Origin: an uncultured Bacilli bacterium
GTDB taxonomy: Bacteria > Bacillota_I > Bacilli_A > RF39 > UBA660
Direction of reading: 5' to 3'
Assembly (NCBI GenBank): GCA_934132925.1
Contig: CAKPAL010000002.1
Coordinates: forward strand, 1-47,228
Length of the DNA stretch: 47,228 nucleotides
Below, one piece after another: positions 1,306 to 20,838 of this stretch (the stretch's first letter is position 1; the number at the start of each line of letters is the position of its first letter). The position numbers were made by a program, and so were the translations under genes. The notes under the pieces were generated by a model, which was not told where the DNA came from, did no database searches, and saw only the letters and a list, made by a program, of their open reading frames with translations.

Positions 1306-1307
1306 GG

Positions 1308-2986: not shown

Positions 2987-3044
2987 ATATTATATTCCCT
3001 TCTTTCTATAGTTCTATTATATCATTATTTTAATGTGTTTTATA

Positions 3045-3058: not shown

Positions 3059-3064
3059 GGTATG

Positions 3065-3108
3065 AAAAAAAGACTTAGCACATCATTGTGATGTGGGTAA
3101 GTCTTTTT
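3065..3108 (-). terminator. Rho-independent terminator closing the R-M/helicase operon
   Basis: AAAAAGACTTA...TAAGTCTTTTT outer stem with inner CACATCA/TGATGTG helix. U7 follows on the minus strand. Confidence 0.8.
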
Positions 3109-3178: not shown

Positions 3179-3850
3179 TTACAATTGCCATTCTAAATGT
3201 ATTCTTTTCTTTTCATTTTCTGTTATGGTTATATCATTTTTTTCGAATTTGGATTTAAAATCAAGTCTATCATCATAAAAGAAGTTCAATATAAAATCAA
3301 TAAAATTATATAATGATATTGGACCCATCATCGGAATTCTGCATTCGTCATAGTTACTTAACGTCATGTGAGTTATTGGGTGTATAACATCAATGTGATT
3401 ATCTTCATCATAATCAACTCGTATCATAACTGGTATTCCCATCTCATTATCAAACCAATCTGTTTCAAAATTATTAATATCCATATTAGAAATTTCCTCT
3501 TTTGTCCATAGATAATTATGCTTTTTTATAAAGGTCAATCGTTCTTTAATTATTTTTCCATCTTTGATCATAAAGTCATATTGAATTATGCTTCTATCAT
3601 ACAAAAGTATATTATATTCTTTTCTTTCTAATAAAGTACTCATAATTTTTTCTACTGATAAATGCTTATCATACAAAATATTAGATTCATTTTTTCTTCC
3701 GCTACGTGATATTTCTGAAATATCTTTATTTTCTATGACAGAATATGATTTTGAATCCCTAATCATATTTTTTTCATATAATTCTTTTTGTAAACTATTA
3801 TAGTCTATAGAAAATTTTTTTAAAAAAGTTTTATTACCATCACTTGTCAT
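3179..3850 (-). CDS. Hypothetical protein, translationally coupled partner of the upstream helicase
   Basis: 223-aa ORF whose start overlaps the helicase stop by 11 nt. I could not recognise any motif by eye; DUF2290 should be tested. Confidence 0.7.
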   Translation of the reverse strand: MTSDGNKTFLKKFSIDYNSLQKELYEKNMIRDSKSYSVIENKDISEISRSGRKNESNILYDKHLSVEKIMSTLLERKEYNILLYDRSIIQYDFMIKDGKIIKERLTFIKKHNYLWTKEEISNMDINNFETDWFDNEMGIPVMIRVDYDEDNHIDVIHPITHMTLSNYDECRIPMMGPISLYNFIDFILNFFYDDRLDFKSKFEKNDITITENEKKRIHLEWQL

Positions 3851-5912
3851 CTATAACAAAATCCCTTAGCCTATCTTTATATTTTTCTCCAAATAGTTCT
3901 TTTAAAAGTATTTCCATGTTACTTTGATTTTCATCAATGAATTTTTTTGTATTTGTTAATGCATCGGAATCGTTTTTACTAATATCTTTATTTAATATTA
4001 CCATTTGCTCTCTATCGCTCTCAGTTGGATACTTTTTAAAATATAATTTATAATTGTTTTCTTTAACTTTTTCATACTCATAGCATAGCTTTTCCATTGA
4101 ATTTCCATAACCATAAACTCTTACCCAACCTTTACTACGTGTAATTGCGGTAAAAAGTGCATTTCTATCTTTGGTTATACTTAAGGTCTCTATGCATCGT
4201 TGTGCATTTAATATATATACATAATATGCCTCATTACCTTTAGCCCTGAAAATGGTACTATAAACTATAGAATCATTTCTAAAAAAGTCTTCGGGATTTG
4301 CTGATCCAGCTTGATGGATATTTATTCCTGCATATTTATCTGAATTAGAATTTATTAATAATTGTATTTTTGATAAGTTAGCAGCTGCATTAATACCATC
4401 TAAATCAATAATCATTATATCGCTTGGATTTAAACTGTCTCTTGTAATATTGATTTTTATTGATTCTAGTAATTTAAGATAAACTTGATTTGAATCATCA
4501 AATTTATCTATTTTGATTAAATCACTCGAATCTGCTTTTAAAAAATCCGGGCTAGTTTCTTTATCCCTATACAAAGTAACTGGCCTTCCTTCAATTATAT
4601 TTTCATCGGATTTGTACCCTATACTTTTCCAAACGTCTGTGGAGTTTGGTATTTGTATCATCCCTTCTTCTCTGTACAGCCCCATTCCCAGTGCATGTGC
4701 TGTTACTATAACTCTTAGTTGATTTCTATAACAGGTTATTAACGGAGTATCCTTGCTTATATTAAAACCAAATATTTTTTCTGGTGATTCCATTGATAAT
4801 TCATTTAATCTTTGCAATTCATCATATGCATAAACTAATCTATTTTCATTTCCCAATACCTTACAGCATAATTTTAGAAACGAATCATTAAAATCTTGAG
4901 CCTCATCTATTAATATACAATCATATTGTTTGGTAAATACTTTTCCACTATTTAAAACTTCTTCACATAATAAATCGAATGGCCTGCTGGCAAATGGATA
5001 TTTTTTCTTTGCTTCGTAATATGTGTATGATTTGATTTCCATATTCTTACATATATCGTAGTATAAACCATCCGATGACGATGAACCCCATGCATGCATT
5101 ACTTTTACTTTAGTAAAGTCAGGATGCTTACCGTCATTTCTTGTCATGTAAAACTTATCAATCAAGCTATACAACTGATTTTTTAATGTTCTTGTATAAT
5201 AAGTTACAACTATTGTCCATTCCGGATGTGCAATATGTAATTCTACTGCTTTTCTGGCTAAAATAACAGTCTTACCCGAACCAGCCATGCCTCTAATCCT
5301 TTGTACTCCTATTGGATCCTCCATGATTGCGTTCATTTGACTGCAATCATATTTTTCAATGATATTATTCATTTCATCAATTAACAGAGCTTTTGAGTTT
5401 TCATTAGCATTTATATGGTAATTTTTTCTGTTTAAACCTTGAGCCTCTTGTAAGCCGGATAGAATCATATCAACCTTTTGATTTTCGATTGTTTCCAAAT
5501 TATCATTAATATATTCGTTTATATCATTAAAATTTGTAAATACAGGATAGTCATCAATCTTTTCCGTATTGACCATTGAATATGAGCATACATTTATTGT
5601 AAACGGTAAGTTTCTTTTGTTAACTAAAAAACTGCATCTTTTTAATCTTGATTCGATTTTATTATATAAATCATCTTGGATCTTTCCATAATTTAAAACT
5701 TCTTTATCAATAATGTTTATAATAAAGAAACCATAATTGGATACAACGGCTAAATCACAGATTAATTCCTCTTTAGTATATTCAATAGAATACACTGGAT
5801 AGCCTATGTATGCATCTCCATATACATCTTCTTTTACGTTGAATACATTTATTATATTTTCTATAATATTCTTTTTTTTATTATTTTCTATTTTTCCTGA
5901 AACATTTATCAT
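3840..5912 (-). CDS. SF1 (UvrD/DUF2075-like) helicase with an N-terminal nuclease-related (NERD-like) region
   Basis: Walker A GMAGSGKT, Walker B ILIDEAQDF, motifs TCYRN, FRAKGNEAYYVYI, LFTAITRSKGWVRVYG. Start moved to the ATG at 5912 behind GAGGTGA; the track start is 5933. Confidence 0.85.
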   Translation of the reverse strand: MINVSGKIENNKKKNIIENIINVFNVKEDVYGDAYIGYPVYSIEYTKEELICDLAVVSNYGFFIINIIDKEVLNYGKIQDDLYNKIESRLKRCSFLVNKRNLPFTINVCSYSMVNTEKIDDYPVFTNFNDINEYINDNLETIENQKVDMILSGLQEAQGLNRKNYHINANENSKALLIDEMNNIIEKYDCSQMNAIMEDPIGVQRIRGMAGSGKTVILARKAVELHIAHPEWTIVVTYYTRTLKNQLYSLIDKFYMTRNDGKHPDFTKVKVMHAWGSSSSDGLYYDICKNMEIKSYTYYEAKKKYPFASRPFDLLCEEVLNSGKVFTKQYDCILIDEAQDFNDSFLKLCCKVLGNENRLVYAYDELQRLNELSMESPEKIFGFNISKDTPLITCYRNQLRVIVTAHALGMGLYREEGMIQIPNSTDVWKSIGYKSDENIIEGRPVTLYRDKETSPDFLKADSSDLIKIDKFDDSNQVYLKLLESIKINITRDSLNPSDIMIIDLDGINAAANLSKIQLLINSNSDKYAGINIHQAGSANPEDFFRNDSIVYSTIFRAKGNEAYYVYILNAQRCIETLSITKDRNALFTAITRSKGWVRVYGYGNSMEKLCYEYEKVKENNYKLYFKKYPTESDREQMVILNKDISKNDSDALTNTKKFIDENQSNMEILLKELFGEKYKDRLRDFVIDDK

Positions 5913-5934
5913 AAACTTCACCTCAGAACACATG

Positions 5935-7452
5935 TTATAAATTGCAATTTATTTCGTTTGAAATTTGAAATTTTTCTTGACGTCTAGATAAGAATACCTT
6001 TGTTTTTGGAGTCAATATTTCTTCTGGTAATTCTTTGCTATCAGTACAAAAATCAAAGAAGTTTTTATCTATTTCATTTGCATTCAATTTTACAACAACT
6101 TTTCCAGTATTTGAATCAAAACAATAAAAATTTGAATCAAATAAGCCATGGTGATTACTGCATAACCAAACACCATTATCCCCGGAGTTTGCAAGCATAT
6201 ATTTTTTGTAAAACAATTCTGTTTTATGTTCACTTTCTTGATCTATAAGATCTCTCATTTCTGTATTTGACAGCAAATCATTTATTTCATGAGTACAACA
6301 TTTTTTTATTTCTGCAACGCCCCATAAATGTGCAGCTTCAAGAATACTTTCTATTTCACAACCACATAAATAACACTTGGTTTGTATTCCTTTCTTTCTA
6401 AGATTATTTTTAAATAATTCTTGATTTCTTATAGTTCCTTTTAATTTTGATATTTCATACTGATTAATTTCCCTATTAATTTGTTGTCTCACTTCATCTG
6501 TTGTCTCATACTCTTTATCTAAGCCAATTTTTTTCATTAACTCTATAATGGGATTAGTAAATCCATCTGTAAATTTTGGAACCTCTTGTCCCAATCTAAA
6601 ATTGTATTTTTCTGGAGCAAACATAAATTTTAGTTTTTTATGTTCTTTTTCCGCTAAAATACTTAATGCCCACATCGTTAAAAAACTATCATATCCCTCT
6701 GCTGATAATGTCTTGAATGTATATATATATTCCTGATTTCTTAAATCAATGAAATCTTCTTCTTTTTCTTCATCTGTTTCCTTTTCTATATCATATGAAT
6801 AATCTATGCATTTTACATACGATGGAACGTTACTACTATTTTTGCTTGATATAAAACTCAAATCATTTACGAACTTATTGAATGATATATATTTAATATC
6901 ATCTTTAATTTCGTCAACACTAAATCCCATTTCTATATACTCGTCAAACTTTATTTTTTCAATATTTAGTATATCAAAGCCGATTGTAGCCAATTTACGA
7001 TAAATCATAAGATTAGTTTTATCATGTGGGTGTGTTTTATTTAAATCCAACATATAAAAGTAAAGCTTTATATCTTTATTCTTAGCTTTTTCAGTTAAAT
7101 AATAATCAAATATTTTATTACTTCCCTGTGCAAAATAGGTATTTGCATGATATCCAGTGTGTCCATAATCAAAGTTTGGATTTTCTAGTAACTTATCTTC
7201 ATCGTAACCAGTATTACTTAAACCTACAATATACTTTATAATACCATCTTCGATTATTGTTATTGTTCTTGAACTTTCTTTTTTACTTCTTTGACTTTGC
7301 ACTGTATTACCATCAAGTGAAATGACTTGATAGCTAATATTATTTGAATCTATTGTTAAACCGTTTCTTTTATATGCACTTATCACTACATCTTTATATA
7401 TTTTTTTATATGTCTCTTTATATCCACTATATACTCTAGCTACTATTTCCAT
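5935..7452 (-). CDS. Putative restriction endonuclease with C-terminal HNH nuclease domain
   Basis: CYLCGC...EAAHLWG...WLCSNHHGLFDSNFY (HNH/beta-beta-alpha-Me). It lies 10 nt downstream of the methylase gene and has RBS AGGTGGTG. Confidence 0.75.
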   Translation of the reverse strand: MEIVARVYSGYKETYKKIYKDVVISAYKRNGLTIDSNNISYQVISLDGNTVQSQRSKKESSRTITIIEDGIIKYIVGLSNTGYDEDKLLENPNFDYGHTGYHANTYFAQGSNKIFDYYLTEKAKNKDIKLYFYMLDLNKTHPHDKTNLMIYRKLATIGFDILNIEKIKFDEYIEMGFSVDEIKDDIKYISFNKFVNDLSFISSKNSSNVPSYVKCIDYSYDIEKETDEEKEEDFIDLRNQEYIYTFKTLSAEGYDSFLTMWALSILAEKEHKKLKFMFAPEKYNFRLGQEVPKFTDGFTNPIIELMKKIGLDKEYETTDEVRQQINREINQYEISKLKGTIRNQELFKNNLRKKGIQTKCYLCGCEIESILEAAHLWGVAEIKKCCTHEINDLLSNTEMRDLIDQESEHKTELFYKKYMLANSGDNGVWLCSNHHGLFDSNFYCFDSNTGKVVVKLNANEIDKNFFDFCTDSKELPEEILTPKTKVFLSRRQEKFQISNEINCNL

Positions 7453-7462
7453 AATTCACCAC

Positions 7463-9343
7463 CTAATAATTTATTATTATAATTTCTTGCCTATCTTGAC
7501 GATTTCTTTTTGTTATTTGATTATTTACGATTAATTTATAATTATTGTTTTTAATCCATTCAGTTAATTTTGAATTAATTTTTTCATTTCTATTCTTCAT
7601 ATTGGACAACATAAATTTTATTTCTTTTTTATTCAACCTATCCAGGAAATCAAGAAGTTCTTGTTCTTGATTTTCATCCCACCCGTTGAACCCCCTTTTA
7701 CCATCGTTATAAGCACCACACGATATCAAATATGGCGGATCACAATAAACAAAGTCGTCTTTTGAAATTTCGTTTTCAAATGACTTGTAGTCCATAGACT
7801 TAAAAACTATATTAATTGATTTTGTTCTGTTAGAATAAGAGGTCAATTTTTCAAGCATTTCTTGATTATATCCTGAATTTCCACATGGATTATTAAATTC
7901 TAAATTATTATTAAATCTTATTTGATGTTCAAAGCCATAGCAGATTAACAAATATAAATCAAGTGGATTTCTACTTCCAATTTGGTTTGAGTTATATTTT
8001 TTTCTAAAATTGACATAGGCTTCTTTATTCTTTTTTTCTAAATTATATTTTTTTATTGTCTTTTCAATATAGTTATAAGTTGTTAAAAATTTATCTCTTG
8101 ATATTTTTTCTAAAAGATCCCTTACCATCCAATTTATATCATTATAAATTACTTTTTCACAATTTACATTTATTCCAACGGTACCACCGCCGCCAAACAA
8201 ATCATAAAAAGTATTTATGTTTTTTGGTAAGTTACTTTTTATCAATGGCAATATTTCATATTTACCGCCAATATAATTAAGTGGTGATATGTAATATGGT
8301 TCCTCTTTTTTTTCAATGTAAAATAACCATTCATAATGTCTTTTATTTTTAGTATTTTCCTTTAGTTCACGATTCACAGCTCGAGTATTCTTATATTTTA
8401 CAAAATCTATTTTTTTAAATACATAAGTCCCTTCTTTTGCATACCTCTTCATAACTTTTTCAATAAATTCTTTTGACATTATACCGGCATCACTATAACT
8501 AAATATAATATGTTTAAATTTTGCATTCGCTATCAATTTTTCAAATTCCTCGTGTACGCAACCTTTTCTGCACCACATAGAAATTTGATTTCCATTATCT
8601 CTATGTGCACCTATTCCATGAATTTCTGGATTATCATTTTTTGCAATTGTTTCAAGCACATGATATTGACTTACATATTGAGTTGATGTATATGGCGGAT
8701 CCAAATACAAAATATCACCAGAAATTTTATTTATCAAATCATTAGCATCAAGCATATAAACCTCATTATTATATTTTGGTTCTCCATATGTTTCTAATGG
8801 TATAAATTCCATATTTTTTATAGCCCTAGGATCCCAAATTTTTAAATATGCAGAATAAACTCCTGCTACATTTGACACTTTGCTTGCACTTTCTAATAGA
8901 CTTCCTATTAAATAATATTTTTCATTTTCATCTATCTTTTTCTCATCAAACCATATATCTATAGTATTTCTAATATAATCTATTTTTTTTGCATTTTCAT
9001 CTGAAAAATATTGCCTACCAGAAATTTCTGGAGCAAAATTATTATAACAAAAACCATCTTTATATTTGCTTGTATCAACATTATTAAAGTATTCAAATGG
9101 ATCAAATCCTAATTTTTTAAAGAAAGTTTTTGATTTATATTTTAACTTGCCATTACAAATAGTATATGAAAAATAAAGATTATCATTTGCAATTATTTCA
9201 TATCTGTTTTTGAAATAATCTCCAACTGTACAAGTTCCGGAGAAAAGATCACAAAATATCATCCCTTTTTTGTTAATTTTCTTTGAAATTAAAAACTTAT
9301 CAATAACTTCTAAAAGTTTTGTTTTATTTCCTATATATCTCAT
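7463..9343 (-). CDS. Tandem two-domain N6-adenine DNA methyltransferase (D12/Dam class x2, M.FokI-like architecture)
   Basis: Two complete modules. The first is MRYIGNK...DLFSGTCTVG...YLDPPYTSTQY and the second is LNYIGGK...DLFGGGGTVG...YCDPPYLIS. Confidence 0.9.
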   Translation of the reverse strand: MRYIGNKTKLLEVIDKFLISKKINKKGMIFCDLFSGTCTVGDYFKNRYEIIANDNLYFSYTICNGKLKYKSKTFFKKLGFDPFEYFNNVDTSKYKDGFCYNNFAPEISGRQYFSDENAKKIDYIRNTIDIWFDEKKIDENEKYYLIGSLLESASKVSNVAGVYSAYLKIWDPRAIKNMEFIPLETYGEPKYNNEVYMLDANDLINKISGDILYLDPPYTSTQYVSQYHVLETIAKNDNPEIHGIGAHRDNGNQISMWCRKGCVHEEFEKLIANAKFKHIIFSYSDAGIMSKEFIEKVMKRYAKEGTYVFKKIDFVKYKNTRAVNRELKENTKNKRHYEWLFYIEKKEEPYYISPLNYIGGKYEILPLIKSNLPKNINTFYDLFGGGGTVGINVNCEKVIYNDINWMVRDLLEKISRDKFLTTYNYIEKTIKKYNLEKKNKEAYVNFRKKYNSNQIGSRNPLDLYLLICYGFEHQIRFNNNLEFNNPCGNSGYNQEMLEKLTSYSNRTKSINIVFKSMDYKSFENEISKDDFVYCDPPYLISCGAYNDGKRGFNGWDENQEQELLDFLDRLNKKEIKFMLSNMKNRNEKINSKLTEWIKNNNYKLIVNNQITKRNRQDRQEIIIINY

Positions 9344-9395
9344 GTTTTACCGCCTTCTATTTTATAATAGCATTAATACTAACTGCATATTAATA

Positions 9396-10289
9396 CTATT
9401 TTTTATTAACTTTTAAGGACTGTTTTATTAATGGCATAACATTATCTATATCATCTTCATCAGATATTTCTACTCTATAATCACCATTGCCCCAATGGCC
9501 AACATTTGTTATATCCCGTGTTATACCTAGTGGATCATTTAATGTTCCTTTTTTCATATTAATATCTAGTCTCAATTTATTCTGAGTAAACTCTACATCA
9601 ACTATGTTTTTTCTTCCTTTAAAAGCAATATATACTTTCTTTACATCTATATCAATATCATCTAATTCTAATATTCTATTTTTTAATATATTATAAAGTC
9701 TTCTGGTTTTTTCAGATACTTTGTTTAAATGATCATCTTCTATATATACTTTAATTTCTTTATTAATTTCTTTTTGTTCTGATTCTATTTGTATATCTTC
9801 TACTTTTACATTGCTTGTCTTCTTTATAAATTCTATATCCACTATATCTTCTTCATATCTTGTAACTTTAATCAAATCTACAGGAATGTTTTTAAAATCA
9901 GTAGCATTAAGTTGATAACTTGTATAAATTGGCGACGCAAATATAATTCTTGACTGACTCCAATCTACGTCTGATAATTTTAAATTAGAATCATTTTTTT
10001 CATTATACTTTAGTACAAACTCCGCTTTTCTCTCTAATAACAATTTTAAATACGTATATCCTTGATCTACTAAACTATGATTTTTAATGTTCTTATATTC
10101 TATAATTCTAAACGATTTACTCTCCTCATCATATGCTAAGGTATCTAGTCTAAAATTGCCCACAGCAAATTCTGTCTCTACAAATTTATATCCAAGAATC
10201 TTTTGCAAATTTTCCTCAAAGTATTTTTGTAATTCTTTTTCATTTTTAAAATCTTTTTGTTTTAATTCTTTATTATCTTTTATTATCAT
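9396..10289 (-). CDS. PD-(D/E)xK nuclease-like N-domain fused to a DUF5655-like C-domain
   Basis: N-terminal FRLDTLAYDE...RIIEYKN (D...ExK). C-terminal ...YIAFKGRKNIVDVEF...NVGHWGNGDYRVEISDEDDIDNVMPLIKQS, typical of DUF5655 as I recall it. Confidence 0.7.
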   Translation of the reverse strand: MIIKDNKELKQKDFKNEKELQKYFEENLQKILGYKFVETEFAVGNFRLDTLAYDEESKSFRIIEYKNIKNHSLVDQGYTYLKLLLERKAEFVLKYNEKNDSNLKLSDVDWSQSRIIFASPIYTSYQLNATDFKNIPVDLIKVTRYEEDIVDIEFIKKTSNVKVEDIQIESEQKEINKEIKVYIEDDHLNKVSEKTRRLYNILKNRILELDDIDIDVKKVYIAFKGRKNIVDVEFTQNKLRLDINMKKGTLNDPLGITRDITNVGHWGNGDYRVEISDEDDIDNVMPLIKQSLKVNKK

Positions 10290-10425
10290 CTAAATCACCT
10301 ATACTTCATCTCTTATTTAATTATAACATATAAACAGTGCTTTTAGATATTTAACTTTCATTAAATGAATAAATTTATATTTTATGTCAATTTAAAACCC
10401 AATTTCTAAAAAAATCGGGTTATTT

Positions 10426-11697
10426 TTACTCCATATTTAATATTTTTTTTATTTCTTCTATCAAAGGATTATTAAGAGTCAAATAGTTATCTATATTTTT
10501 AGAAAGTTTTGCTTTCACTGTATCTTCATTTCGCTTACCTTCAATAACTGTTACATCAAAAAATTCTTTTTTTGTTGATGGAACTTCTTTTATATTTAAA
10601 TTTAATATTTTATTTACTGCATCTAACGGTGCATACAATTCAATACATTCTCTTTTTAATGCTCTTTCTTCATTAGTATCGCCGTCTTTTACTACAAAGC
10701 ACTTTTTACCAGAAGTTTCAAGTTCTTTCTTTAAATATTCAATGTTGTCGCAACCACCTCCCGGTAGTACAAAATACTCATCTGCTTTTCCTAGAAGTTT
10801 AAGTGCTGACTTAATCCACTCCAAATCGTATGCACCTTCAACTAATATATAATTTTTAGAATTTACGTTATCTAGACTCTCAAGTAATTCTATCAATGAA
10901 CTATTCTTGTCATTAAACAACGGATATATATTTGCTCCATTTCTTGCATTTAAAATTTGTGCTGAATGTGTCGTTATTAATGTCTGCCCTATTTTGTTGT
11001 GTATTTTTTTTATCATGCTTTTTGCATTGTTAATAGAAAAAGAGTTTTCTATTTCATCAATCCCTAAAATTACATTATCAAATTTATTTCCTATAATCAA
11101 TGCATATAATAAATTTTTTTGAAAACCCGAACCTCTCGCTTCTATTGGAATACCATTTGCGGTAATATCAAATTTCAAGCTTGCATCATATTTAAATTTT
11201 TGTTCTCCAACAATTTCCGTAGAACTCTCATCCAATATTATAAAATTTCTATCAACGCCTTTTATTACCTCAGTTATAGAATTTTGAGATATGTCTTTAA
11301 GTTTCTGTAATAAGTCTTCATCTGTATTTTCCAATGTTTTTGCTATTGACAATTGTTGTATCATTTGTTTTACATCATAATTACCAACAGGAATATAAAT
11401 ATACTTTATTCCACTTAGGTCATCAATATTTTCAGGGACTACATTTAGTTTATAAGATGCACCAGTGTATTCTTTTTTATAAAATTTTCCATTATACATA
11501 ATTCCTATTTCAACTGTTTTCCCCTGCTCTCTTACAAATGATTTGTCAATTTTCTCTTGATTAAAAAATATGTCTAGGGCCTGCAGTATTGTAGATTTTC
11601 CAGAATCATTTTCTCCAATAAATAAATTGTGCTTTTTGATAACAATCGTTGCGCGTTCAAACTTTTTAAAATTTTTTATATAGATACTTTCTATCAT
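10426..11697 (-). CDS. OLD-family nuclease (ABC-type ATPase + C-terminal Toprim), compact 423-aa form
   Basis: Walker A GENDSGKST, Walker B ILGIDEIENS, H-loop TTHS. Toprim motifs ILVEGAYDLEWI and VVKDGDTNEE. Confidence 0.8.
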   Translation of the reverse strand: MIESIYIKNFKKFERATIVIKKHNLFIGENDSGKSTILQALDIFFNQEKIDKSFVREQGKTVEIGIMYNGKFYKKEYTGASYKLNVVPENIDDLSGIKYIYIPVGNYDVKQMIQQLSIAKTLENTDEDLLQKLKDISQNSITEVIKGVDRNFIILDESSTEIVGEQKFKYDASLKFDITANGIPIEARGSGFQKNLLYALIIGNKFDNVILGIDEIENSFSINNAKSMIKKIHNKIGQTLITTHSAQILNARNGANIYPLFNDKNSSLIELLESLDNVNSKNYILVEGAYDLEWIKSALKLLGKADEYFVLPGGGCDNIEYLKKELETSGKKCFVVKDGDTNEERALKRECIELYAPLDAVNKILNLNIKEVPSTKKEFFDVTVIEGKRNEDTVKAKLSKNIDNYLTLNNPLIEEIKKILNME

Positions 11698-11726
11698 TTT
11701 TATTTCCTCCTACTTCTAGTTAACAT

Positions 11727-11772
11727 AAAAAACGCCAGCACAAAAAATCTATTAAATAGACCTGTACTAGCG
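11727..11772 (-). terminator. Terminator-like leader hairpin + U6 ending 13 nt before the OLD-gene RBS
   Basis: On the minus strand, CGCUAGUACA...UGUGCUGGCG gives 10 bp, two of them G-U (C/A mismatches on the plus strand). There is an inner UCUAU/AUAGA helix, followed by UUUUUU. Confidence 0.65.
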
Positions 11773-12164
11773 TCTTTCTTTAACTAACTTAAGTATATCA
11801 AATTATTTTTATTTAATCAACAAATTTAGACAAATTTCTCCATACTAAAATAATATTAGTATATATCTATTGCTTATATATAATAGATGCAATAGGCATA
11901 TTGTTATTAGACCTAGGCTAATAACAACACTAATAAGACTTACATAGTAAGGCTTATAGTGAACATAATAAAATATATATAATTATTTATTATTAACTAT
12001 TTCTTCTAATATACTTCTTATAATGCTTTCTTCTCTACTACCATTAGTAGTTAATCTAATTAATGGTATATTATATTTAGATATAATATTACTCTTTAAT
12101 ATATCTCTTTCTTTTTGTTTATTATCTTCTTTATGATATTTATATCCATCTACTTCTACTGCTG
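11737..12164. repeat. Junction module copy 1 (about 428 bp, direct repeat of 16664-17092)
   Basis: By-eye alignment gives about 90 percent identity at a constant offset of 4927-4928 bp. Confidence 0.9.
11792..11820 (-). promoter_or_regulatory. Predicted sigma-70-type promoter TTGATT-17-TATACT inside junction module copy 1
   Basis: Hexamers and the 17-nt spacer read directly. Conserved in copies 2 and 3. Confidence 0.5.
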
Positions 12165-12201
12165 TAATGACATTTTTGAAAAAATAAACCTTAAGTTTCA
12201 T
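11983..12201 (-). pseudogene. Truncated DUF2726/DUF559-type (Vsr-like fold) endonuclease-domain remnant
   Basis: ...AVEVDGYKYHKEDNKQKERDIL...IPLIRLTTN. Only the C-terminal half of the domain is present, and the repeat boundary falls inside the domain at VEVDG. Confidence 0.6.
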
Positions 12202-13051
12202 TTTTTTCGTTTTTATATTGTTTTTCTATTTCATATATTTGATTAAAATAATTGTTAATTCTTTTTTTATCATCTTCAAAAGAAGAGGTGTCGTCGTTAT
12301 ACATATTTAATAGTTCTTTATATAGATTTAATCCATAACGTTTTATAAATTCTTCTTTATACTCTTTGGATAGTAAATAGTCTTTTAGTTTAAAGTAAAT
12401 ATAATCTAACTGTTCAATCGTAGTATTCTTAAAATCTATATTTTTAAAATCTTCAATCATTAAACGGTTAAACTCATATATATTTGGAAACTCATTTTTA
12501 TTTTTTTCATTTGCCTCTTCTAAAACTATTATTGATTTTTCATAAGATACTCGTATCTCTATATTTGATAAAATGAAATCTAACAATTCGTTTTTTTGTA
12601 ATTTGTTTAATTCATAATTTAAAACATAATTACAAACATCATATAGTCTAAAAAACTTTTCTTTATCTATACTGGTTTTAAAAATAATATATTCTTCTTC
12701 ACAATTAACTTTATCATAATGCTCATTCTTATTTCTAAAAGCCCTATATAATTCGGCAAATATATATTCTTTGGACTGACACTTCAAATTTTTTGATATT
12801 ATTGTTTCATTAAATAAACATTCTAGCTTGTGAGCATTTTCAAAATATTCCTTTTTATCAACAATTGCTCTGGCATAATTATATAAATTTATTTGAAACT
12901 GTTCAAATTTAGAATTTATATCATTTTGAATATCTGTATCAAATTTTTTCTGAATATTATTGATTAATCTTTTATATTCATTTAGATATTTATCAACTTT
13001 ATTTTTTCCAATCAATATAGATGATAAAATATGTTTCTTTTTTTCTTCCAT
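12191..13051 (-). CDS. Hypothetical protein with an Rx4H motif (possible HEPN-like), last gene of the KAP NTPase operon
   Basis: 286-aa ORF with RBS GGTGA, starting 10 nt after the upstream stop. The motif YRAFRNKNEHYD fits R-x4-H. This is weak single-motif evidence. Confidence 0.6.
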   Translation of the reverse strand: MEEKKKHILSSILIGKNKVDKYLNEYKRLINNIQKKFDTDIQNDINSKFEQFQINLYNYARAIVDKKEYFENAHKLECLFNETIISKNLKCQSKEYIFAELYRAFRNKNEHYDKVNCEEEYIIFKTSIDKEKFFRLYDVCNYVLNYELNKLQKNELLDFILSNIEIRVSYEKSIIVLEEANEKNKNEFPNIYEFNRLMIEDFKNIDFKNTTIEQLDYIYFKLKDYLLSKEYKEEFIKRYGLNLYKELLNMYNDDTSSFEDDKKRINNYFNQIYEIEKQYKNEKNET

Positions 13052-13061
13052 CGGTTCACCA

Positions 13062-14852
13062 CTAAATTTTTGTTTTATTATATGTCACACGAATTTTATT
13101 TTTTTTAATCTCGCAATTATTTATAATACCTTTTAATTGTAAATAGTTCATTAATGTATACATATAGTCAACATTTTCAAATGATAAAGATGTAGTAACA
13201 CCATTTCTTATTTTGCTTATTCTTTCATTTATTTCATATAAATATTTAATATTTATAGGATTAGATTTATGTAAATATATAAAATAATTAATTTTATCTT
13301 TTATTTCTAAGCAGAAAAATAACTGTTCTACTATGGAATCATTTAAGAAAATATTATTTTTTATTATTTCATTTATCAGATATGATAATCCTTTTTTAGA
13401 AATTATTGATATGTCAATAACATCTAACAATTGTATTTTTTTATTAATATCAATATTACTATTTATTATCTCGTCTATAATAAATGTGTCATGTTCAATA
13501 TTATTTTTTAAATTCAAATAATCATCATATTTATTAACCACCAATTTAGACAATAGGATTATATTTTTTTTAAATAAATAATTATATGTATCTATGTTTA
13601 AATCTACTTTATTAAAATTTATTAATTCTTCAACAAATTCTTCATTGATTTCTAATTCGTAATTAAATAAAGAAATAATATAATCAAATTTTTCGGCTAT
13701 AATTTTATAATTTATTAGTGAATTTGAAGTAGAATAAATCATTTTTGATTCAAAATCTTTGAAATTATCATCATTAATTACATTATAGTCGTTTCCAATT
13801 TCTGATAATAAGTATTGTATTACTTCATCTATTTCACCAACTTCATTATAATAACATAAAATATTTTTCATTGATATATTAATATAATTTTCAGTAATAA
13901 TTTCTTTCCATAAACTAGTGTCTTCAATATCATTAATATTAGTAATATTTTCATTTTCTTTCTCTAATATTAAAATTTTCTCCTTTTTATTTAAATTAGA
14001 AGAATTAATAGCTTTTAAAATATTAAGTTCTTTACTATCATATATTTTAAAACTATTATAAAATTTGGCAAACGAATTTGATTCAATAAGTTTATCTTTG
14101 AAATTAGTAAAATTGTCATTTTCAAATAGCATGTCTATTACATCAGCATCTTTATAATAGTTATCAATTTCATACAAATCTATTAATTTATCATAAAACG
14201 ATTTATTTGGAACATAAAATTTGTTATTGTAAAATATATCTATAATTGCCACCACTATTTCATCATAATCTTTAAATGATGGTTTCAAATAATTAATGTT
14301 TAAAATGCTTGTTTCATTAATTTTTAATTTATTTAAAAAATCAACATTTTGTTCTAAAAATTCTTTTAATTTTACATAGCAATTTTCTTTTAAATCAAGT
14401 TTAATATTTTCTAATATTAATTTTAACCATTTTTTATTATTAGTTATGATTTCTAAATTATTAAAGAAATATAAAATTAATTCATTATCAAATATTTTTT
14501 GCAACACTTTTGTGAAATTAATTTCATTATAATTACAATATTCATCTAAAAATTTTAGTTTATAATTATTCATTTGTTTAAATTGAGAGTAAAATTTCTG
14601 CTGCTTGAGAGAAGAAATATTATTTATTAGATAGTCACATATATAAAAATTTAAAACTGTTTCTTTATTAAAATCTTTTGCTTGAATAATGTTAACAATC
14701 TTTTCTACATTTTTTAATTCATAATTATAATTTGCTTTTTCATTAGTATCAACCATTATTAAGAATGAATAATCCATTTGAGTTAAATCCCCTGACTTAA
14801 AATAAGACAAATTATTTTCATAGTTTTCTTTAATAAAGCCATTTTTTACCAA
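13062..14852 (-). CDS. C-terminal continuation of the KAP/YobI-like NTPase frame (annotated ORF has only a TTG start and no RBS)
   Basis: Same reading frame as 14907-16583. The 18 codons between them are open, and only one TAG separates the two ORFs. Confidence 0.6.
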   Translation of the reverse strand: MVKNGFIKENYENNLSYFKSGDLTQMDYSFLIMVDTNEKANYNYELKNVEKIVNIIQAKDFNKETVLNFYICDYLINNISSLKQQKFYSQFKQMNNYKLKFLDEYCNYNEINFTKVLQKIFDNELILYFFNNLEIITNNKKWLKLILENIKLDLKENCYVKLKEFLEQNVDFLNKLKINETSILNINYLKPSFKDYDEIVVAIIDIFYNNKFYVPNKSFYDKLIDLYEIDNYYKDADVIDMLFENDNFTNFKDKLIESNSFAKFYNSFKIYDSKELNILKAINSSNLNKKEKILILEKENENITNINDIEDTSLWKEIITENYINISMKNILCYYNEVGEIDEVIQYLLSEIGNDYNVINDDNFKDFESKMIYSTSNSLINYKIIAEKFDYIISLFNYELEINEEFVEELINFNKVDLNIDTYNYLFKKNIILLSKLVVNKYDDYLNLKNNIEHDTFIIDEIINSNIDINKKIQLLDVIDISIISKKGLSYLINEIIKNNIFLNDSIVEQLFFCLEIKDKINYFIYLHKSNPINIKYLYEINERISKIRNGVTTSLSFENVDYMYTLMNYLQLKGIINNCEIKKNKIRVTYNKTKI

Positions 14853-14906
14853 AGAAATTAGAATTTTATTGTTTAGTAGTTCTTTATAATTATCATCATT
14901 ACTTAA

Positions 14907-16583
14907 CTATTCGTTTATACTATCAATGTTCAGTATTTCTTCCATAGACATTTCTTTATATTTTTCTATTAATTCTTTATTATAGATAATTTTTTCTTCC
15001 ATTTTTTCAAATTCATAATCTAATTTCTCTACTTTATCTAAAAATTCATTTTTAATTTTTGCTTCAATAGATTTTGTGTTATAACTAGAAAAGTTACAGC
15101 GAATATCTTTATTTCGTAAATCCTCAATATTTATTTCAGAATTAATAAAACCATCAAGAGATAATTCTTGTTCACCAATATAAATTTTTGTTTTATTTAT
15201 GTAATTATTAAAATATTCATTTTTTAAAATGTCTAGTAAAAATGATTTTTTTAAATCTTTTAAATCCTTAATTTTTTGACTTTTTGCATCATTAATTTCT
15301 TTAACAATTTGATTATTATTTTCAATTAATTCATTAATTAGCATTCTTATAAACTCTTTTTTAGAATTAAATATATTATACAAATCACCATCATATTCAA
15401 GTCTTTTATCAAAATCAGAAGGGTTGATATTTTTATAACTAATGATAGCAAACAATTGTGTATAGTCGATATCCTGATTATCTTTTAATACATCAATATA
15501 CATCTTAAATTCCATAAAAATATTATTTAATAATCTTCTATCTTGTATGTGTAGGCTTAATATGCTAAACAAATTCTCATTAATTGTTAACTCATATTTA
15601 TTTTGAATTTTTTTATATAATTCCATTATATATTGTTTTGCATTTTGGCTTGAAAACTTTGAGATGACTGGTATTATATTATCAAAAAATTTCACTCGAT
15701 CCTCCGGATTTAAAAACAAATCATCCCTCAAAGCGTAAATAAAAATTACACCACCATTTTTAGAAATAGTTTCATTAGAATTCAACATGAAATTAAGTTC
15801 TTTCAATTTTTTAAATATTTCTAATGATATTTTCTCATATCTATCTAAGTCTTCTATGATAAGAATTTTAGTTTTTGTTTGTTTAAAAAAATATACAATT
15901 TCATCTAGATATTTATTAAATACCGACTTTTCATCATTATTCGAAAATGAAATTTCTAAGTCTTTATATTTCAGTGCTAAAGTATTTATATATATTTGAA
16001 TTATACTAATTAATTTATATATGCATAGAAATATAACTATAAAATATATATAATATATAATAAAGATAATACTATCAGAAAGGTATTGATGAAAAAAATT
16101 GTACAATGGAGTGAGCATGGCCTCATAAACCTCTGGAAAATAAAAATTTATACATAACATTATGAAACATGAAATTATTGCTAATGAAATTTTTTTTAAT
16201 CCACTAATATATTTAATTCTTTTAAATCTAGACAATGGCAATTTATTTTCATCAATAGTGTAAATTATTTGTTGTAATATTTTTGTTTCTATTTCATTAG
16301 AAACAATATTGGTTTCATCACCTGTTGCTTGTTTATAATTACCTAATGATATTCTTATACTTTTGTAACTATTATCTATTTTTTTTAATATTGAATTTAT
16401 TATACTAGTTTTACCAATTCCATATCTTCCTGTAAAAGCAATTATTTTATTTTTATGTTTAATTGCCTCCATAAAACTATTAAAATATATATTTTTTTCA
16501 TCAACATCATCTCTTGGAGCTAATGAAAAAAATATTTCATCTTTATTTTGCAATTCCTTCCTTTTAAAAACTTTTTTACTCAT
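14907..16583 (-). CDS. KAP-family P-loop NTPase with TM helices inserted in the NTPase domain (YobI/Tmn-like), ends at an in-frame TAG
   Basis: Walker A TGRYGIGKTS. Two to four hydrophobic helices at about aa 125-200. KAP-type Walker B ILIIEDLDRY. Confidence 0.85.
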   Translation of the reverse strand: MSKKVFKRKELQNKDEIFFSLAPRDDVDEKNIYFNSFMEAIKHKNKIIAFTGRYGIGKTSIINSILKKIDNSYKSIRISLGNYKQATGDETNIVSNEIETKILQQIIYTIDENKLPLSRFKRIKYISGLKKISLAIISCFIMLCINFYFPEVYEAMLTPLYNFFHQYLSDSIIFIIYYIYFIVIFLCIYKLISIIQIYINTLALKYKDLEISFSNNDEKSVFNKYLDEIVYFFKQTKTKILIIEDLDRYEKISLEIFKKLKELNFMLNSNETISKNGGVIFIYALRDDLFLNPEDRVKFFDNIIPVISKFSSQNAKQYIMELYKKIQNKYELTINENLFSILSLHIQDRRLLNNIFMEFKMYIDVLKDNQDIDYTQLFAIISYKNINPSDFDKRLEYDGDLYNIFNSKKEFIRMLINELIENNNQIVKEINDAKSQKIKDLKDLKKSFLLDILKNEYFNNYINKTKIYIGEQELSLDGFINSEINIEDLRNKDIRCNFSSYNTKSIEAKIKNEFLDKVEKLDYEFEKMEEKIIYNKELIEKYKEMSMEEILNIDSINE

Positions 16584-16602
16584 TCATGTACACCTCACTT
16601 CG

Positions 16603-16644
16603 AAAAAATAAGCAGTATCCATCTAAAAAAGAATAAATACTGCT
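16603..16644 (-). terminator. Second terminator-like hairpin + U-run immediately upstream of the KAP NTPase RBS
   Basis: On the minus strand, AGCAGTAT...ATACTGCT (8 bp) is followed by TATTTTTT, then GAAGTGAGGTG and the ATG. Confidence 0.55.
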
Positions 16645-16663
16645 ATCTTTCATTTATAATTAT

Positions 16664-17092
16664 AGCACAAAAAATCTATTAAATAGACCTGTACTAGCGT
16701 CTTTCTTTAACTAAATTAAGTATATCAAATTATTTTTATTTAATCAACAAATTTAGACAAATTTCTCTATACTAAAATAATATTAGTATATAGTTATTAC
16801 TTATATATAATAGATACAATAGGCATATTGTTATTAGACCTTAGGCTAATATCAACACTAATAAGACTTACATAGTAAGGCTTATAGTGAACATAATAAA
16901 ATATATATAATTATTTATTATTAACTATCCCTTCTAATTTACTTCTTATAATACTCTCTTCTCTACTACTATTAGTAGTTAATCTTATTAATGGTATATT
17001 ATATTTAGATAGTATATTATTCTTTAATATATCCCTTTCTTTTTGTTTATTATCTTCTTTATGATATTTATATCCATCTACTTCTACCGCTA
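16664..17092. repeat. Junction module copy 2
   Basis: Direct repeat of 11737-12164. Confidence 0.9.
16719..16747 (-). promoter_or_regulatory. Predicted promoter TTGATT-17-TATACT (module copy 2)
   Basis: Identical hexamers and spacing to copy 1. Confidence 0.5.
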
Positions 17093-17255
17093 ATAATGGT
17101 TTTTTACTTATATTATTATATATTAAGAAATCTATATGAGTATTATGGTGAGAAGTATATTTTCTTTCTTCTTCTGTTAATAATGTTTTATCTTTTATTA
17201 ATATATCTAAAATTTTATTTATGTTTTCTTTTATATAAATATACTCCTCCTGATA
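16911..17255 (-). pseudogene. DUF2726-like ORF (114 codons) lacking an ATG/GTG/TTG start
   Basis: Own translation gives ...HIDFLIYNNISKKPLLAVEVDGYKYHKEDNKQKERDIL...IPLIRLTTNSS...NNK*. The only candidate start is an ATT behind AGGAGG. It overlaps the end of the upstream gene by 41 nt. Confidence 0.55.
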
Positions 17256-17757
17256 TTACTCCTATACCTAAGATTGTGTTTAATAAACTATTGCTATCCT
17301 TTTCATCTTCACTATCATTATCTTCAATATTTTTACTAGTGGATATTATACAACTTCCATCATCCACCTCTGCCTTCGGATCATAGTTATCTGCTGATGG
17401 ATTTTTACATCCTAGTACATAATATTCACAGGTTCCGTTATCTTTATTTGCTGATGAATTATAGTTCTTTGCTGTTTCATCTGTGCATCCATATGTATAA
17501 TAGATACAACTTCCATCATCTCTATTAGCACTAGAATTATAATTACTTGCATTTTTGTCTGTGCACCCATAAGTATAGGTAACTGTTGGTGTACATGTAC
17601 AATTAGGACTTAAAGTACCATCATTACAAACCAATCTTCCAGAACTACTACAACCGCTAACACCACCATGATGAGAACAGCAACCCCTCGTTGCATTAAC
17701 CTTTAATGGCATCAATAGTATAATGCACACTAAAATTACTATTATTTTTTTCTTCAT
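17215..17757 (-). CDS. Secreted/membrane-anchored Cys-rich protein with three tandem YGC(T/K)...NY...A..D(D/N)G(S/T)C repeats
   Basis: Signal peptide MKKKIIVILVCIILLMPLKVNA, a GCCSHHGGVSGC motif, three repeats of about 32 aa, and a C-terminal TM helix plus KRKHK. Confidence 0.8.
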   Translation of the reverse strand: MKKKIIVILVCIILLMPLKVNATRGCCSHHGGVSGCSSSGRLVCNDGTLSPNCTCTPTVTYTYGCTDKNASNYNSSANRDDGSCIYYTYGCTDETAKNYNSSANKDNGTCEYYVLGCKNPSADNYDPKAEVDDGSCIISTSKNIEDNDSEDEKDSNSLLNTILGIGVISGGVYLYKRKHK

Positions 17758-17775
17758 TCTATATCACCCTACCAC

Positions 17776-17823
17776 AAAAAAAACACCAGCACAAAAAATC
17801 TATTAAATAGACCTGTACTAGCG
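17776..17823 (-). terminator. Terminator-like leader hairpin + U8 ending just before the RBS of the Cys-rich gene
   Basis: Same hairpin as 11727-11772 (CGCUAGUACA...UGUGCUGGUG), followed by UUUUUUUU and then GGTAGGGTG and the ATG. Confidence 0.65.
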
Positions 17824-17890
17824 TCTTTCTTTAACTAAATTAAGTATATCAAATTATTTTTATTTATTCAATATATTTTGACAATTTTCT
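17784..17890. repeat. Junction module copy 3 (promoter + leader half only)
   Basis: Aligns to 11733-11840 and 16664-16765. Confidence 0.85.
17843..17871 (-). promoter_or_regulatory. Predicted promoter TTGAAT-17-TATACT (module copy 3)
   Basis: Read directly. Confidence 0.5.
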
Positions 17891-18069
17891 TATTCATCAT
17901 CTTCTGAATAATAATCATCATCTTCTAGTTCTTCTTCTTCAAAGTTAAATGAATCATACTTATTTTCTTTTACTAATTCTTTTTTCCAATCTTCTAAATC
18001 ATTATTATCTTTTTTATTATTGTCTTGAGTATCTGCAAATGCTTTTATTAAGTTCCATATCAAACACAT
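17890..18069 (-). CDS. Small, extremely acidic protein (59 aa from the ATG behind GGTGGTGAG)
   Basis: The C-terminal half is almost pure D/E/Y (FEEEELEDDDYYSEDDE). The track start at 18084 is a TTG. Confidence 0.55.
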   Translation of the reverse strand: MCLIWNLIKAFADTQDNNKKDNNDLEDWKKELVKENKYDSFNFEEEELEDDDYYSEDDE

Positions 18070-18117
18070 AGTCTCACCACCCAAAGTTATTATATCATTA
18101 TTGTATATAAATTTTAA

Positions 18118-18390
18118 TTAATATTTTATATCTTCCCCTAAGCCATTAACAAAATTAATATCAACATCAATTATTTTAAGCACTTCAAAATATTTACTAT
18201 TTTCTGTTATTCTTGGACTTATGTTTATATTAAACTTTTGATATAAATATTTTTGTAAAAAGTTGTATATGTCATGTCCTCTTATATAATTAGCATTATT
18301 TTCGAATTTTATTGATACATTATTAAAATAATCCATTATTAAATCATTTTTCCCTATTACTTCTTTAATCTTTTTATTTTGTCTTTCCAT
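18118..18390 (-). CDS. ORF that is probably the C-terminal part of the Toprim/DUF4435-like protein (reached by a -1 shift)
   Basis: No RBS. Its frame stays open for 44 codons upstream of its ATG, back into the A7 tract region of the upstream ORF. Confidence 0.5.
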   Translation of the reverse strand: MERQNKKIKEVIGKNDLIMDYFNNVSIKFENNANYIRGHDIYNFLQKYLYQKFNINISPRITENSKYFEVLKIIDVDINFVNGLGEDIKY

Positions 18391-19106
18391 TAAGTTTTTT
18401 CTAAAATAATAGTTATACTTTCCAGTAAAATCAAAGTCAAAAATATCTTCTGCTGTAATTTTTTTACCGGTTTTTTTCCATATAAGAATTCTACTCTGGT
18501 TGATGGTAAGTACGTATGATATTTACACTTTTTACATGCTATTGTAGTACTACACTTTAAACGATTATAGTATGAAACTTCTTTAATAAATCTATTTAAA
18601 TATATTATAAATTCATTTAGATCTGCTTCTGTTAATTTAAAATATTCAAATATTTTTCTTATATTTCTTTTTGAAAAGAAATAATTTTCAAATGCGTAAC
18701 CATTTGTAATATTAAAAACTTTTTTATTTAAATATTTTTCATCATAATATTCACTCAATAACCCATAATTATCGCTATCAATTATAAAAATAGATTTCTT
18801 TAGTAAGTATTTAAAGTTTACATATGAATTAATTTCATAATATTTTTTTATCACACTTTCTTTTCCTACACGGCATTCCTTTATTTCATCGTTTTTTGTG
18901 AGTCCAGTAATAAATTTTATTTTTTTGTTACTAATAGATAAATTTTGAATATTTCCATAAAAATCCTCATCTGTTGGTCCTTCAACATAGCAAATATAAT
19001 CTAAATCTTCATAATTTCTGATTATATTTGTATCTATAATTACTGATGATATTGGGGGATACGTTCTATTATTTAAGAACGAATCTTTAAAATTATTATA
19101 ATTCAT
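18390..19106 (-). CDS. Toprim/DUF4435-like nuclease (AriB-like), N-terminal frame
   Basis: CYVEGPTDEDFY (Toprim Glu) and FIIDSDNYG (DxD-like). Start overlaps the ATPase stop by 11 nt. The last roughly 27 aa (...PVKKLQQKIFLTLILLESITIILEKT) look out of frame. Confidence 0.7.
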   Translation of the reverse strand: MNYNNFKDSFLNNRTYPPISSVIIDTNIIRNYEDLDYICYVEGPTDEDFYGNIQNLSISNKKIKFITGLTKNDEIKECRVGKESVIKKYYEINSYVNFKYLLKKSIFIIDSDNYGLLSEYYDEKYLNKKVFNITNGYAFENYFFSKRNIRKIFEYFKLTEADLNEFIIYLNRFIKEVSYYNRLKCSTTIACKKCKYHTYLPSTRVEFLYGKKPVKKLQQKIFLTLILLESITIILEKT

Positions 19107-20553: not shown

Positions 20554-20659
20554 TAAACTCTCTCCTTTTAAATTTATTATATCATAACTTTTTACTAAAT
20601 ACGACATTTTGCTTATTTTTCTACTCTTATTTAGATATCTATTTGACAAATCTAATGAA

Positions 20660-20688
20660 ATTATAATGTTTATCATTAGTCTTGTCAA
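20660..20688 (-). promoter_or_regulatory. Consensus sigma-70 promoter TTGACA-17-TATAAT for the PARIS-like operon
   Basis: Perfect hexamers and a 17-nt spacer on the minus strand. Confidence 0.7.
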
Positions 20689-20700
20689 AATAAATATAAC

Positions 20701-20838
20701 TACTATAATATTATTAGTATATATCTATAACTTATATATAATAAGTATCTTGGATACTTTTAATTAAGATAAGTTTACTTAGCTTAATTAAACACTAATA
20801 AGACTTACATAGTAAGGCTTATAGTGAACATAATAAAG
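20701..20838. repeat. Junction module copy 4 (hairpin half only, central part substituted)
   Basis: Shares AATATTATTAGTATATATCTAT..CTTATATATAATA and ACACTAATAAGACTTACATAGTAAGGCTTATAGTGAACATAATAAA with copies 1 and 2. Confidence 0.8.

Follow-up and report, generated by a model that had tools for sequence, protein, structure and literature searches.

Three unrelated operons in a stretch of chromosomal DNA from an uncultured Bacilli bacterium (contig CAKPAL010000002.1, positions 1 to 47,228; hereafter the window, 47,228 nt long, ~25% G+C) begin with copies of one leader, a head of ~125 nt that joins a predicted promoter, a hairpin of intrinsic-terminator form and the Shine-Dalgarno (SD) sequence of the gene behind it. 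The reading that we prefer, and to which we give an even chance of being right, is that this portable head throttles and insulates operons: most polymerases would stop at a leaky terminator, and the operon would be expressed by read-through. An initial annotation of the window, made from its letters alone, had suggested that unrelated cassettes share one control element. In this it was borne out, as we found 67 copies, spread over at least 12 species, in which the first open reading frame (ORF) after the leader falls into at least 17 unrelated families.

As we picture it, the head would consist of a sigma-A-type promoter, a 5' tail of ~12-17 nt, the terminator hairpin, with an A-tract and a U-run that extend its stem, and a conserved spacer with the SD up to the start codon. 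Measured from the presumed start, the terminator would come after ~55-60 nt, and 5-16 nt would then follow up to the SD. Judging from its form, the hairpin would act as RNA on the sense strand and stop most polymerases, those from the head's own promoter as well as those arriving from upstream genes. The downstream operon would be made by read-through only, which would keep its expression low and buffer it against the promoter-like sequence that pervades DNA of 25% G+C. The common head could also act as a homology tract, at which general recombination would swap, insert and excise cassettes. How defense systems stay harmless yet ready, and how defense islands turn over fast, are open questions, and such a head offers a testable answer to both: expression level would be set by terminator read-through, and new genes would be "plug-compatible" once recombined behind it. 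If the throttle model holds, the head would be a natural compact insulator part.

Leader copies in the window

A 38-mer (GACGCTAGTACAGGTCTATTTAATAGATTTTTTGTGCT) occurs exactly three times on the minus strand (11737-11774, 16664-16701, 17788-17825) and in none of 100 shuffles, which puts the three leaders where the initial annotation had seen them. Every copy has TTGAWT, a 17-nt spacer ending in TG-n, and TATACT 5' of the 38-mer; in the copies before the OLD-like gene and before a gene for a Cys-rich protein, the 38-mer is followed by the 3' arm of the hairpin, a run of U6 or U8 and the SD of the next gene. The features are as follows:

11698..11830, minus strand: leader copy 1, heading the OLD/AriA/GajA-like operon 10426-11697 (covariance model 94.7 bits); -35 TTGATT 11815-11820, 17-nt spacer ending in TG-A, -10 TATACT 11792-11797, hairpin 11733-11772, U6 11727-11732, GGAGG 11706-11710, ATG 11697
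11733..11772, minus strand: terminator-type hairpin of copy 1, with an outer helix of 11-13 bp, an inner helix of 5-6 bp and a U-rich internal loop
16649..16760, minus strand: leader copy 2, heading the Tmn/KAP cassette (covariance model 68.1 bits); -35 16742-16747, -10 16719-16724
16601..16644, minus strand: replacement hairpin of 13 pairs (16611-16644) plus TATTTTTT, unrelated to the leader and flagged by the terminator scan
17758..17880, minus strand: leader copy 3, heading the Cys-rich secreted-protein gene 17215-17757 (covariance model 94.6 bits); -35 TTGAAT 17866-17871, -10 17843-17848, hairpin 17784-17823, U8 17776-17783, SD AGGGTGA 17764-17770

Copy 3, for which the annotation had correctly given the same leader with U8, stands directly 3' of a small acidic ORF (17890-18084), and the product of the gene that it heads is a membrane-anchored protein with a signal peptide. 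For copy 1, the stem and U6 before the GGAGG of the OLD-like gene had been described accurately except for the distance, which is 16 nt and not 13 nt. The hairpins abut the SD, and there is indeed no room for a normal promoter between the two. A promoter inside the hairpin was considered as well and judged unlikely: the best candidate, TTTAAT in the loop, is without A2, TG or any -35.

Copy 2 differs from the other two. Its 5' arm and loop are intact, homology to the leader stops after GTGCT (16664), and the 3' arm and the U-run are missing, so that this leader folds at -10.3 kcal/mol without a U-run. The same junction is found in L011, one of the related loci that we compared with the window (labeled L001-L050). 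The second, unrelated hairpin with its own U-run, which the annotation had also noted, follows ~40 nt past the end of homology and directly precedes the SD (GAGGTG, 16591-16596) of the KAP/Tmn gene, whose ATG is at 16583. We favor the view that this hairpin and U-run, occurring at the same place, are a functional replacement of the lost 3' arm and terminator. Because the leader is shared regardless of the gene, and because a non-homologous hairpin and U-run have taken its place in the KAP head, the role of the element would be one in transcription that does not depend on the gene. The KAP/Tmn gene itself (within 13062-16583) is probably a pseudogene in the genome of the window, where a TTG>TAG nonsense change at ~14907-14909 on the minus strand leaves ORFs of 558 and 596 amino acids (aa); in L011 it is intact, with 1173 aa and 99.25% identity.

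The leader hairpin as an RNA feature

The hairpins were correctly recognized as terminator-like. They have a G+C-rich base (GACGC/GCGUC or CGC/GCG), an A-tract on the 5' side and a U-run on the 3' side, and they form on the sense strand specifically. The hairpin of copy 1 alone folds at -21.3 kcal/mol (z -6.7 against shuffles), that of copy 3, the Cys copy, at -19.4 kcal/mol (z -5.9). The full leader of copy 1 reaches -30.7 kcal/mol on the minus strand (z -6.3) versus -12.2 on the plus strand, in agreement with the strand specificity claimed from two G-U pairs in the stem, which are U10-G37 and U7-G40; the Cys copy adds a third. Folded as DNA, the two hairpins have only -8.1 (copy 1) and -4.8 kcal/mol (Cys copy). 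A scan of the whole window for hairpins with a T-run, in which only five sites exceeded the threshold, had both complete leader hairpins as the strongest on the coding strand (copy 1: -17.6).

Among the leader variants, sense-strand folds range from -12 to -21 kcal/mol (most from -16 to -21) in all but three degenerate ones, and antisense folds from -1.5 to -14 kcal/mol. The 5' arm and the loop are nearly invariant across copies. The 3' arm occurs in two registers, GUGCUGG(C/U)G or GUGCU-GCGUC with U7 bulged, besides several point variants, and its commonest changes, G<->A opposite U and C<->U opposite G, keep it paired on the sense strand only. In the alignment to the covariance model, 90.3% of cells are paired versus 30-50% with slid partners, and two pairs have C-G<->U-A double changes, with a cell count that was reached by none of 500 shuffles. 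As this alignment keeps one register for the GCGUC stem class and undercounts pairing at four positions, per-sequence folds were used there instead. The diverged copies L050_405, L023_5019 and L028_184, with GAUGC...GCAUC and AGUAU...AUACU, add further compensation, and L016_4081, also diverged, has GGUGC...GCAC(U) with two more compensatory pairs, which makes four double changes overall (C-G/U-A or A-U/G-C). That pairing is preserved on the sense strand only, through G-U wobbles and double changes, indicates that the leader hairpin is a feature of the RNA. An outer helix around the terminator (UUAGUUAA/UUAACUAG) has uncompensated breaks in L006, L009 and L011 and was not counted as structure.

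Directly after the stem, 54 of 57 copies have a run of 5-9 U, despite indels. This bears on the idea that the hairpin does not terminate at all but stabilizes the mRNA, shielding it near its 5' terminus against 5'-dependent decay by RNase J or Y. The presumed 5' tail of ~12-17 nt would suit such a function, as would the pairing of the A-tract with the U-run, which leaves few free 5' bases. However, a stabilizer has no need of the U-run that the indels have spared, and the non-homologous replacement in the KAP head again comes with one, so that we regard this explanation as improbable. In the window and the loci L001-L050, homopolymer lengths vary, from T4 to T8 in the internal loop and from T5 to T9 in the terminal run; the length of the T-run could tune terminator strength for each cassette.

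The initial annotation had called the leader attenuator-type and had proposed that expression is either kept low or made conditional by antitermination. The attenuator and the antitermination found no support: only ~12-17 nt precede the stem, and the folded leader forms a single hairpin without a sensor domain or an alternative antiterminator fold. Rfam searches with the whole window at the gathering score and with 11650-12250 at E<=10 gave no relevant match, antitermination motifs included, the best E-values being 3-4 and to unrelated families. A leader peptide was also discarded as a candidate, since the ATG in the U-run (MLTRSRRK*) is peculiar to the OLD copy, the others having GTA there.

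A conditional gate could nevertheless be operated in trans. In this scenario, the terminator would be nearly complete in uninfected cells, and a host regulator, a phage antiterminator or a phage-modified polymerase would co-induce all cassettes, in an architecture resembling the lambda PR'-tR'/Q system or LoaP/RfaH/UpxY leaders. A strong terminator ~55-60 nt from the presumed start, placed before long operons of potentially harmful genes, is what such a gate would look like, and its presence on every cassette would permit co-induction; moreover, the spacer between -35 and -10 is more invariant than promoter function needs and could be a factor-binding site. Yet the window ORFs of at least 80 aa included no NusG paralogue and no protein like BglG/LicT, Q or N, although the gene could lie elsewhere or belong to a family that is not known, and the leader has no similarity to phage or plasmid DNA. 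Furthermore, secreted and small proteins, which have no need of infection-dependent control, are also headed. Its use thus goes beyond toxic effectors, and the Cys-rich product, too, is no obvious one. We give the conditional gate a modest chance, well short of even, and conclude that constitutive throttling and insulation fit the data at least as well as conditional control. If read-through were inducible, it would be a new route of infection sensing.

The putative promoter and the alternative of an upstream terminator

The argument that the head carries a sigma-A-type promoter (TTGAWT, 17 nt, TG-n-TATACT) is a comparative one. Across three variants of the -10 (TATACT, TACAAT and TATATT), T1, A2 and T6 are retained, as are the TG, the spacing of 17 nt and a -35 that reads TTGAWT or TTGCTT; in contrast, the base 4 nt after the -10 hexamer is represented by all four nucleotides among copies. 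The spacer AAATAAAAATAATTTGA between -35 and -10 is almost invariant, and a fourth, unrelated upstream sequence also has TGgTAAAAT. These features point to a putative promoter.

Several observations weigh against the throttling head. The TTGATT-17-TATACT promoter that had been predicted for the OLD-like gene is located where it was claimed, but its hexamer match alone is not significant at 25% G+C, as the window has 134 promoter-like sites versus 131 expected. The hairpin of L016_4081 lies 5 nt after a stop codon without the head promoter and suggests that the hairpin can work, or persist, without a promoter. L046_2162 and L050_997 are among the few copies with a weak stem or no U-run. In orthologous loci, the hairpin part has 92% identity, the same as the adjacent coding sequence (92%), and the promoter part 84%. 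Covariation is thin, with two of 16 pairs in the main set and a score barely above shuffles, because the leader family is young and narrow; we regard it as supportive of the stem, not as statistically strong. Promoter activity, termination efficiency and read-through are, in addition, all deduced from sequence.

Part of this evidence would fit a plain terminator of the upstream unit, that is, of the acidic ORF operon or the previous cassette, with inert hexamers and downstream genes that are largely silent and expressed by leakage only. The hairpin follows the stop codon of the acidic ORF by ~75 nt, with no other terminator there, and L016_4081, the chance density of promoter-like sites and the decay of several cassettes (the nonsense change in KAP, truncated ORFs) point the same way. 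An upstream terminator does not explain, however, why three diverged variants share -35, spacing, TG and the -10 positions A2 and T6 and why an independent fourth upstream sequence also has an extended -10. It also leaves unexplained that the conserved block reaches through the SD to the ATG, which ties it to the downstream gene, and that the 3'-arm variants move with the downstream cassette. We see a small chance that this alternative is correct.

Genes behind the leader

The families found as the first ORF after the leader are:

Cys-rich secreted protein
OLD/AriA/GajA-like ATPase
Tmn/KAP
several PHP+ATPase proteins, one of which was scanned (L002) and is a weak Ppl-like match
DRT-type reverse transcriptase (RT_UG31, 5e-50)
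938-aa RelA/SpoT-domain protein
ResIII/PbeA-like helicase
membrane protein, small 68-aa protein, receiver-domain protein and others

Many of these genes are anti-phage, and DRT, Ppl-like, RelA/SpoT and helicase genes are among those headed in the 67 matches of the covariance model. Homology from head to head runs through GTATTAACTAGAAGTAGGAG, including the SD, and in part up to the ATG.

The order of promoter, short RNA, terminator and toxic gene is also that of type III toxin-antitoxin (TA) operons (PMC5086642), and one may ask whether the terminated transcript of ~58 nt is a small RNA or RNA antitoxin that neutralizes or regulates the downstream protein. However, none of the leaders contains tandem repeats (11698-11840, 16584-16760 and 17758-17880 were inspected), and it is implausible that one RNA binds 17 unrelated proteins. 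Neither did the downstream proteins that were scanned (OLD-like, Tmn, DRT, Ppl-like and others) show a match to a ToxN/AbiQ/CptN-type toxin. We consider an antitoxin role hardly credible.

Distribution of the leader family

With a search pattern that covered only the 5' arm and the loop, we found 14 copies in 12 species-representative gut genomes (metagenome-assembled genomes, MAGs), whose carriers include uncultured Tenericutes/Bacilli, Clostridium sp. CAG:302, Firmicutes CAG:321 and one chromosome of 1.46 Mb. We tentatively place the carrier MAGs in the RF39-type gut lineage, whose genomes are reduced. A second pattern, tied to the -10 and SD regions and placing no constraint on the hairpin, matched 38 human-gut metagenome contigs. 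A covariance model built from 28 distinct copies gave the 67 matches at E<=1e-5, all on the sense strand and in 51 sources. The copies of a genome, one to three in number, all lie in one chromosomal locus.

Searches of viral contigs gave no exact match to the leader, and an origin as a phage or late-promoter module was dismissed, as blastn found no match in 50,697 phage or 72,556 plasmid records. More distant relatives, approached through the frame gene 22728-23474, have homologues of 46-74% identity in other contexts, where the covariance model finds no leader. The family appears to be young and narrow. It is confined to one hypervariable hotspot, and its carriers form a narrow clade of human-gut Bacilli/'Tenericutes' with small genomes of low G+C. 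With its 67 copies, two stem classes and natural weak variants, the comparative set amounts to a collection of ready-made mutants.

The layout is not a general habit of the lineage. In 468 kb that were scanned, 23 of the 25 sites at which a hairpin and T-run are followed by an SD and ORF belong to the leader family, and there is one weak unrelated example in L016. In this example, at 10180-10260 on the minus strand, a promoter-like TGTATAAT, a weak hairpin (CUAUAC/GUAUAG), U8 and the SD of a 255-aa gene form a second, non-homologous instance, which is located downstream of a leader copy without an ORF of its own.

Cassette exchange in a fixed frame

The heads occur in two upstream contexts, either after the small acidic ORF or after a DUF2726 remnant with a hairpin-rich spacer, and four cassettes (OLD, KAP, Cys-rich and RelA/SpoT) are each known from both. 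Context-specific bases end 5' of the hairpin and cassette-specific bases begin in the 3' arm, and we therefore place the crossovers in the invariant 5' arm and loop; the variants of the 3' arm travel with the downstream cassette. In the window, the KAP/Tmn cassette (12191-16583) stands between two direct repeats of 450 nt, each of which ends in the leader:

11711..12163, minus strand: direct repeat unit A, comprising the 3' remnant of a DUF2726-like gene, the hairpin-rich spacer and leader copy 1
16638..17091, minus strand: direct repeat unit B, 91-95% identical to unit A

While the pattern of exchange is directly visible in these comparisons, the pathway that we infer is general recombination with the head as the homology tract. 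Scans of the window ORFs for domains found no integrase, transposase, RAYT or other recombinase.

The alternative to homology-driven exchange is that the hairpin is itself a DNA recombination site, targeted as single-stranded DNA by a site-specific recombinase or transposase that moves the cassettes, in the manner of attC or repetitive extragenic palindromic (REP) elements. Repeated, imperfect and strand-biased hairpins at cassette boundaries would be expected in this case, and the KAP junction does fall inside the stem. However, the window offers no enzyme of this kind, the DNA fold has only -5 to -8 kcal/mol and the stem depends on G-U wobbles. Further, the element is conserved in sequence, beyond its structure, and the breakpoints are at no single position, with homology that mostly continues to the ATG. 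We judge a recombination site to be very improbable.

A bolder proposal, with a slim chance in our view, would combine exchange and control: the head would be a common switch and docking site and the hotspot an integrase-free analogue of an integron that serves defense genes, in which cassettes loop out and re-enter at leader copies through general recombination, and a single event in trans (a host factor, a phage antiterminator or a modification of the polymerase) opens all of them. If this were true, the takeover of transcription by a phage would itself induce the arsenal of the host.

The 3' remnant of the DUF2726-like gene (AVEVDGYKYHKEDNKQKERDILK...) is located at 11990-12163 and 16920-17210 on the minus strand, and a 148-aa version is present in L004. 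The repeats also include a 64-nt segment with two hairpins (CACTATAAGCCTTAC..GTAAGTCTTATTAGTG; TTATTAG..CTAATAA) at 11901-11963 and 16829-16891, with a related copy at 20782-20837. Some loci have this segment and others, collinear in all else, lack it; TATG stands at both junctions, and the segment may be a miniature insertion element.

The defense-rich hotspot

Nearly all genes between 450 and 31964 are on the minus strand. The variable, defense-rich segment of the window extends from ~3179 to 22710 and is framed by an ABC-F gene and an MqsRA-like pair upstream and by a two-component system downstream. Its content, listed with the hairpin at its downstream border, is:

DUF2290 protein and helicase
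HNH protein
D12 methylase
DUF5655 protein
10426-11697: OLD/AriA/GajA-like ATPase
Tmn/KAP (YobI) NTPase
AAA_21 ATPase
NOV_C protein
3073..3102, no strand assigned: bidirectional terminator-like hairpin, the downstream border of the variable island

Frame segments corresponding to window 22732-25645, 20701-21177, 17779-18098 and 1-3108 recur across the loci, the last of them beginning at the hairpin 3073..3102, and the content between them varies. The alignments thus depict a locus of fixed frame and variable content.

Comparison with known systems

Promoter-proximal intrinsic terminators in 5' leaders are known from attenuators, from the 6S RNA of lambda PR'-tR' with Q, and from LoaP, RfaH and UpxY leaders. 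Like these, the head has a strong terminator a few tens of nucleotides past the promoter and just before the first SD, which every mRNA of the operon has to pass. Unlike these, it has no aptamer, leader peptide, antiterminator helix, ops, boxA or RAT motif and no Rfam match, the window yielded no cognate antiterminator gene, and one leader serves many unrelated operons per locus.

In integron arrays, unrelated genes are each delimited by a repeated, imperfect, strand-specific hairpin and turn over rapidly in a fixed frame. The hotspot resembles them in its hairpin-delimited unrelated genes and its fixed frame. It differs in that no IntI-type tyrosine recombinase was found in the window and that the hairpin is located 5' of a gene, together with a promoter and an SD of its own. 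Unlike attC, the hairpin is conserved in sequence, stable as RNA and weak as DNA, and exchange looks homology-driven. To our knowledge, a common regulatory head on the units has not been described for hotspots of the P2/P4 type. As in these defense hotspots, which core genes flank (PMC9122126), the frame is fixed, the content differs between close relatives and anti-phage systems abound, whereas here each unit starts with the common head (compare PMC9122126).

By the operational definition of Nijveen, Matus-Garcia and van Passel 2012 (PMC3575422), a putative mobile promoter is a stretch of 50 nt or more that is at least 80% identical in front of unrelated coding sequences. The head has this degree of identity, across species and without an Rfam match. 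In contrast to those promoters (PMC3575422), it carries a terminator and extends over the SD as far as the ATG, it is found in one hotspot per genome and not scattered, and the way in which cassettes are exchanged suggests recombination inside the head. Type III TA systems (ToxIN, CptIN, TenpIN) combine one promoter, a short non-coding RNA and a Rho-independent terminator before a harmful gene, with low read-through (PMC5086642). The head is unlike them in having no tandem-repeat antitoxin, and the downstream proteins, those scanned being unrelated to ToxN, are all unrelated to each other (compare PMC5086642). We have filed the element as a putative terminator-bearing, reused promoter head that organizes a defense hotspot.

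Other features of the window

The AAA_21 ATPase gene (19096-20688) and its partners of 238 and 90 aa form an insertion at window 18098-20700; in most related loci, no more than ~65 nt separate the counterparts of window positions 18098 and 20701. This cassette has a consensus promoter of its own (TTGACA-17-TATAAT at 20688-20660) and no leader hairpin. Next to it, at 20850-21080 on the minus strand, we recognized by eye in the alignment a remnant of a metallophosphoesterase C-terminus (..VWIYGHDHKEEN..). Most loci have conserved the frame segment into which it falls (20701-21177), and it suggests old gene debris in the frame of the hotspot.

The Rfam motif DUF3800-I RNA matches at 25525-25649 on the plus strand with 67 bits, compared to a gathering score of 44.2. 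Its neighbors are the ABC-F gene on one side and the MqsA/SocA-like gene on the other, both of which lie on the opposite strand. Several related loci have kept the segment with the motif, and no DUF3800 gene was seen nearby.

Finally, a 45-nt repeat occurs at 27126-27170 and 32507-32551, with 96% identity between the two copies. By eye, a hairpin (CTATAGA..TCTATAG) and a T-run can be made out in it on the minus strand, and it is probably a shared ordinary terminator.

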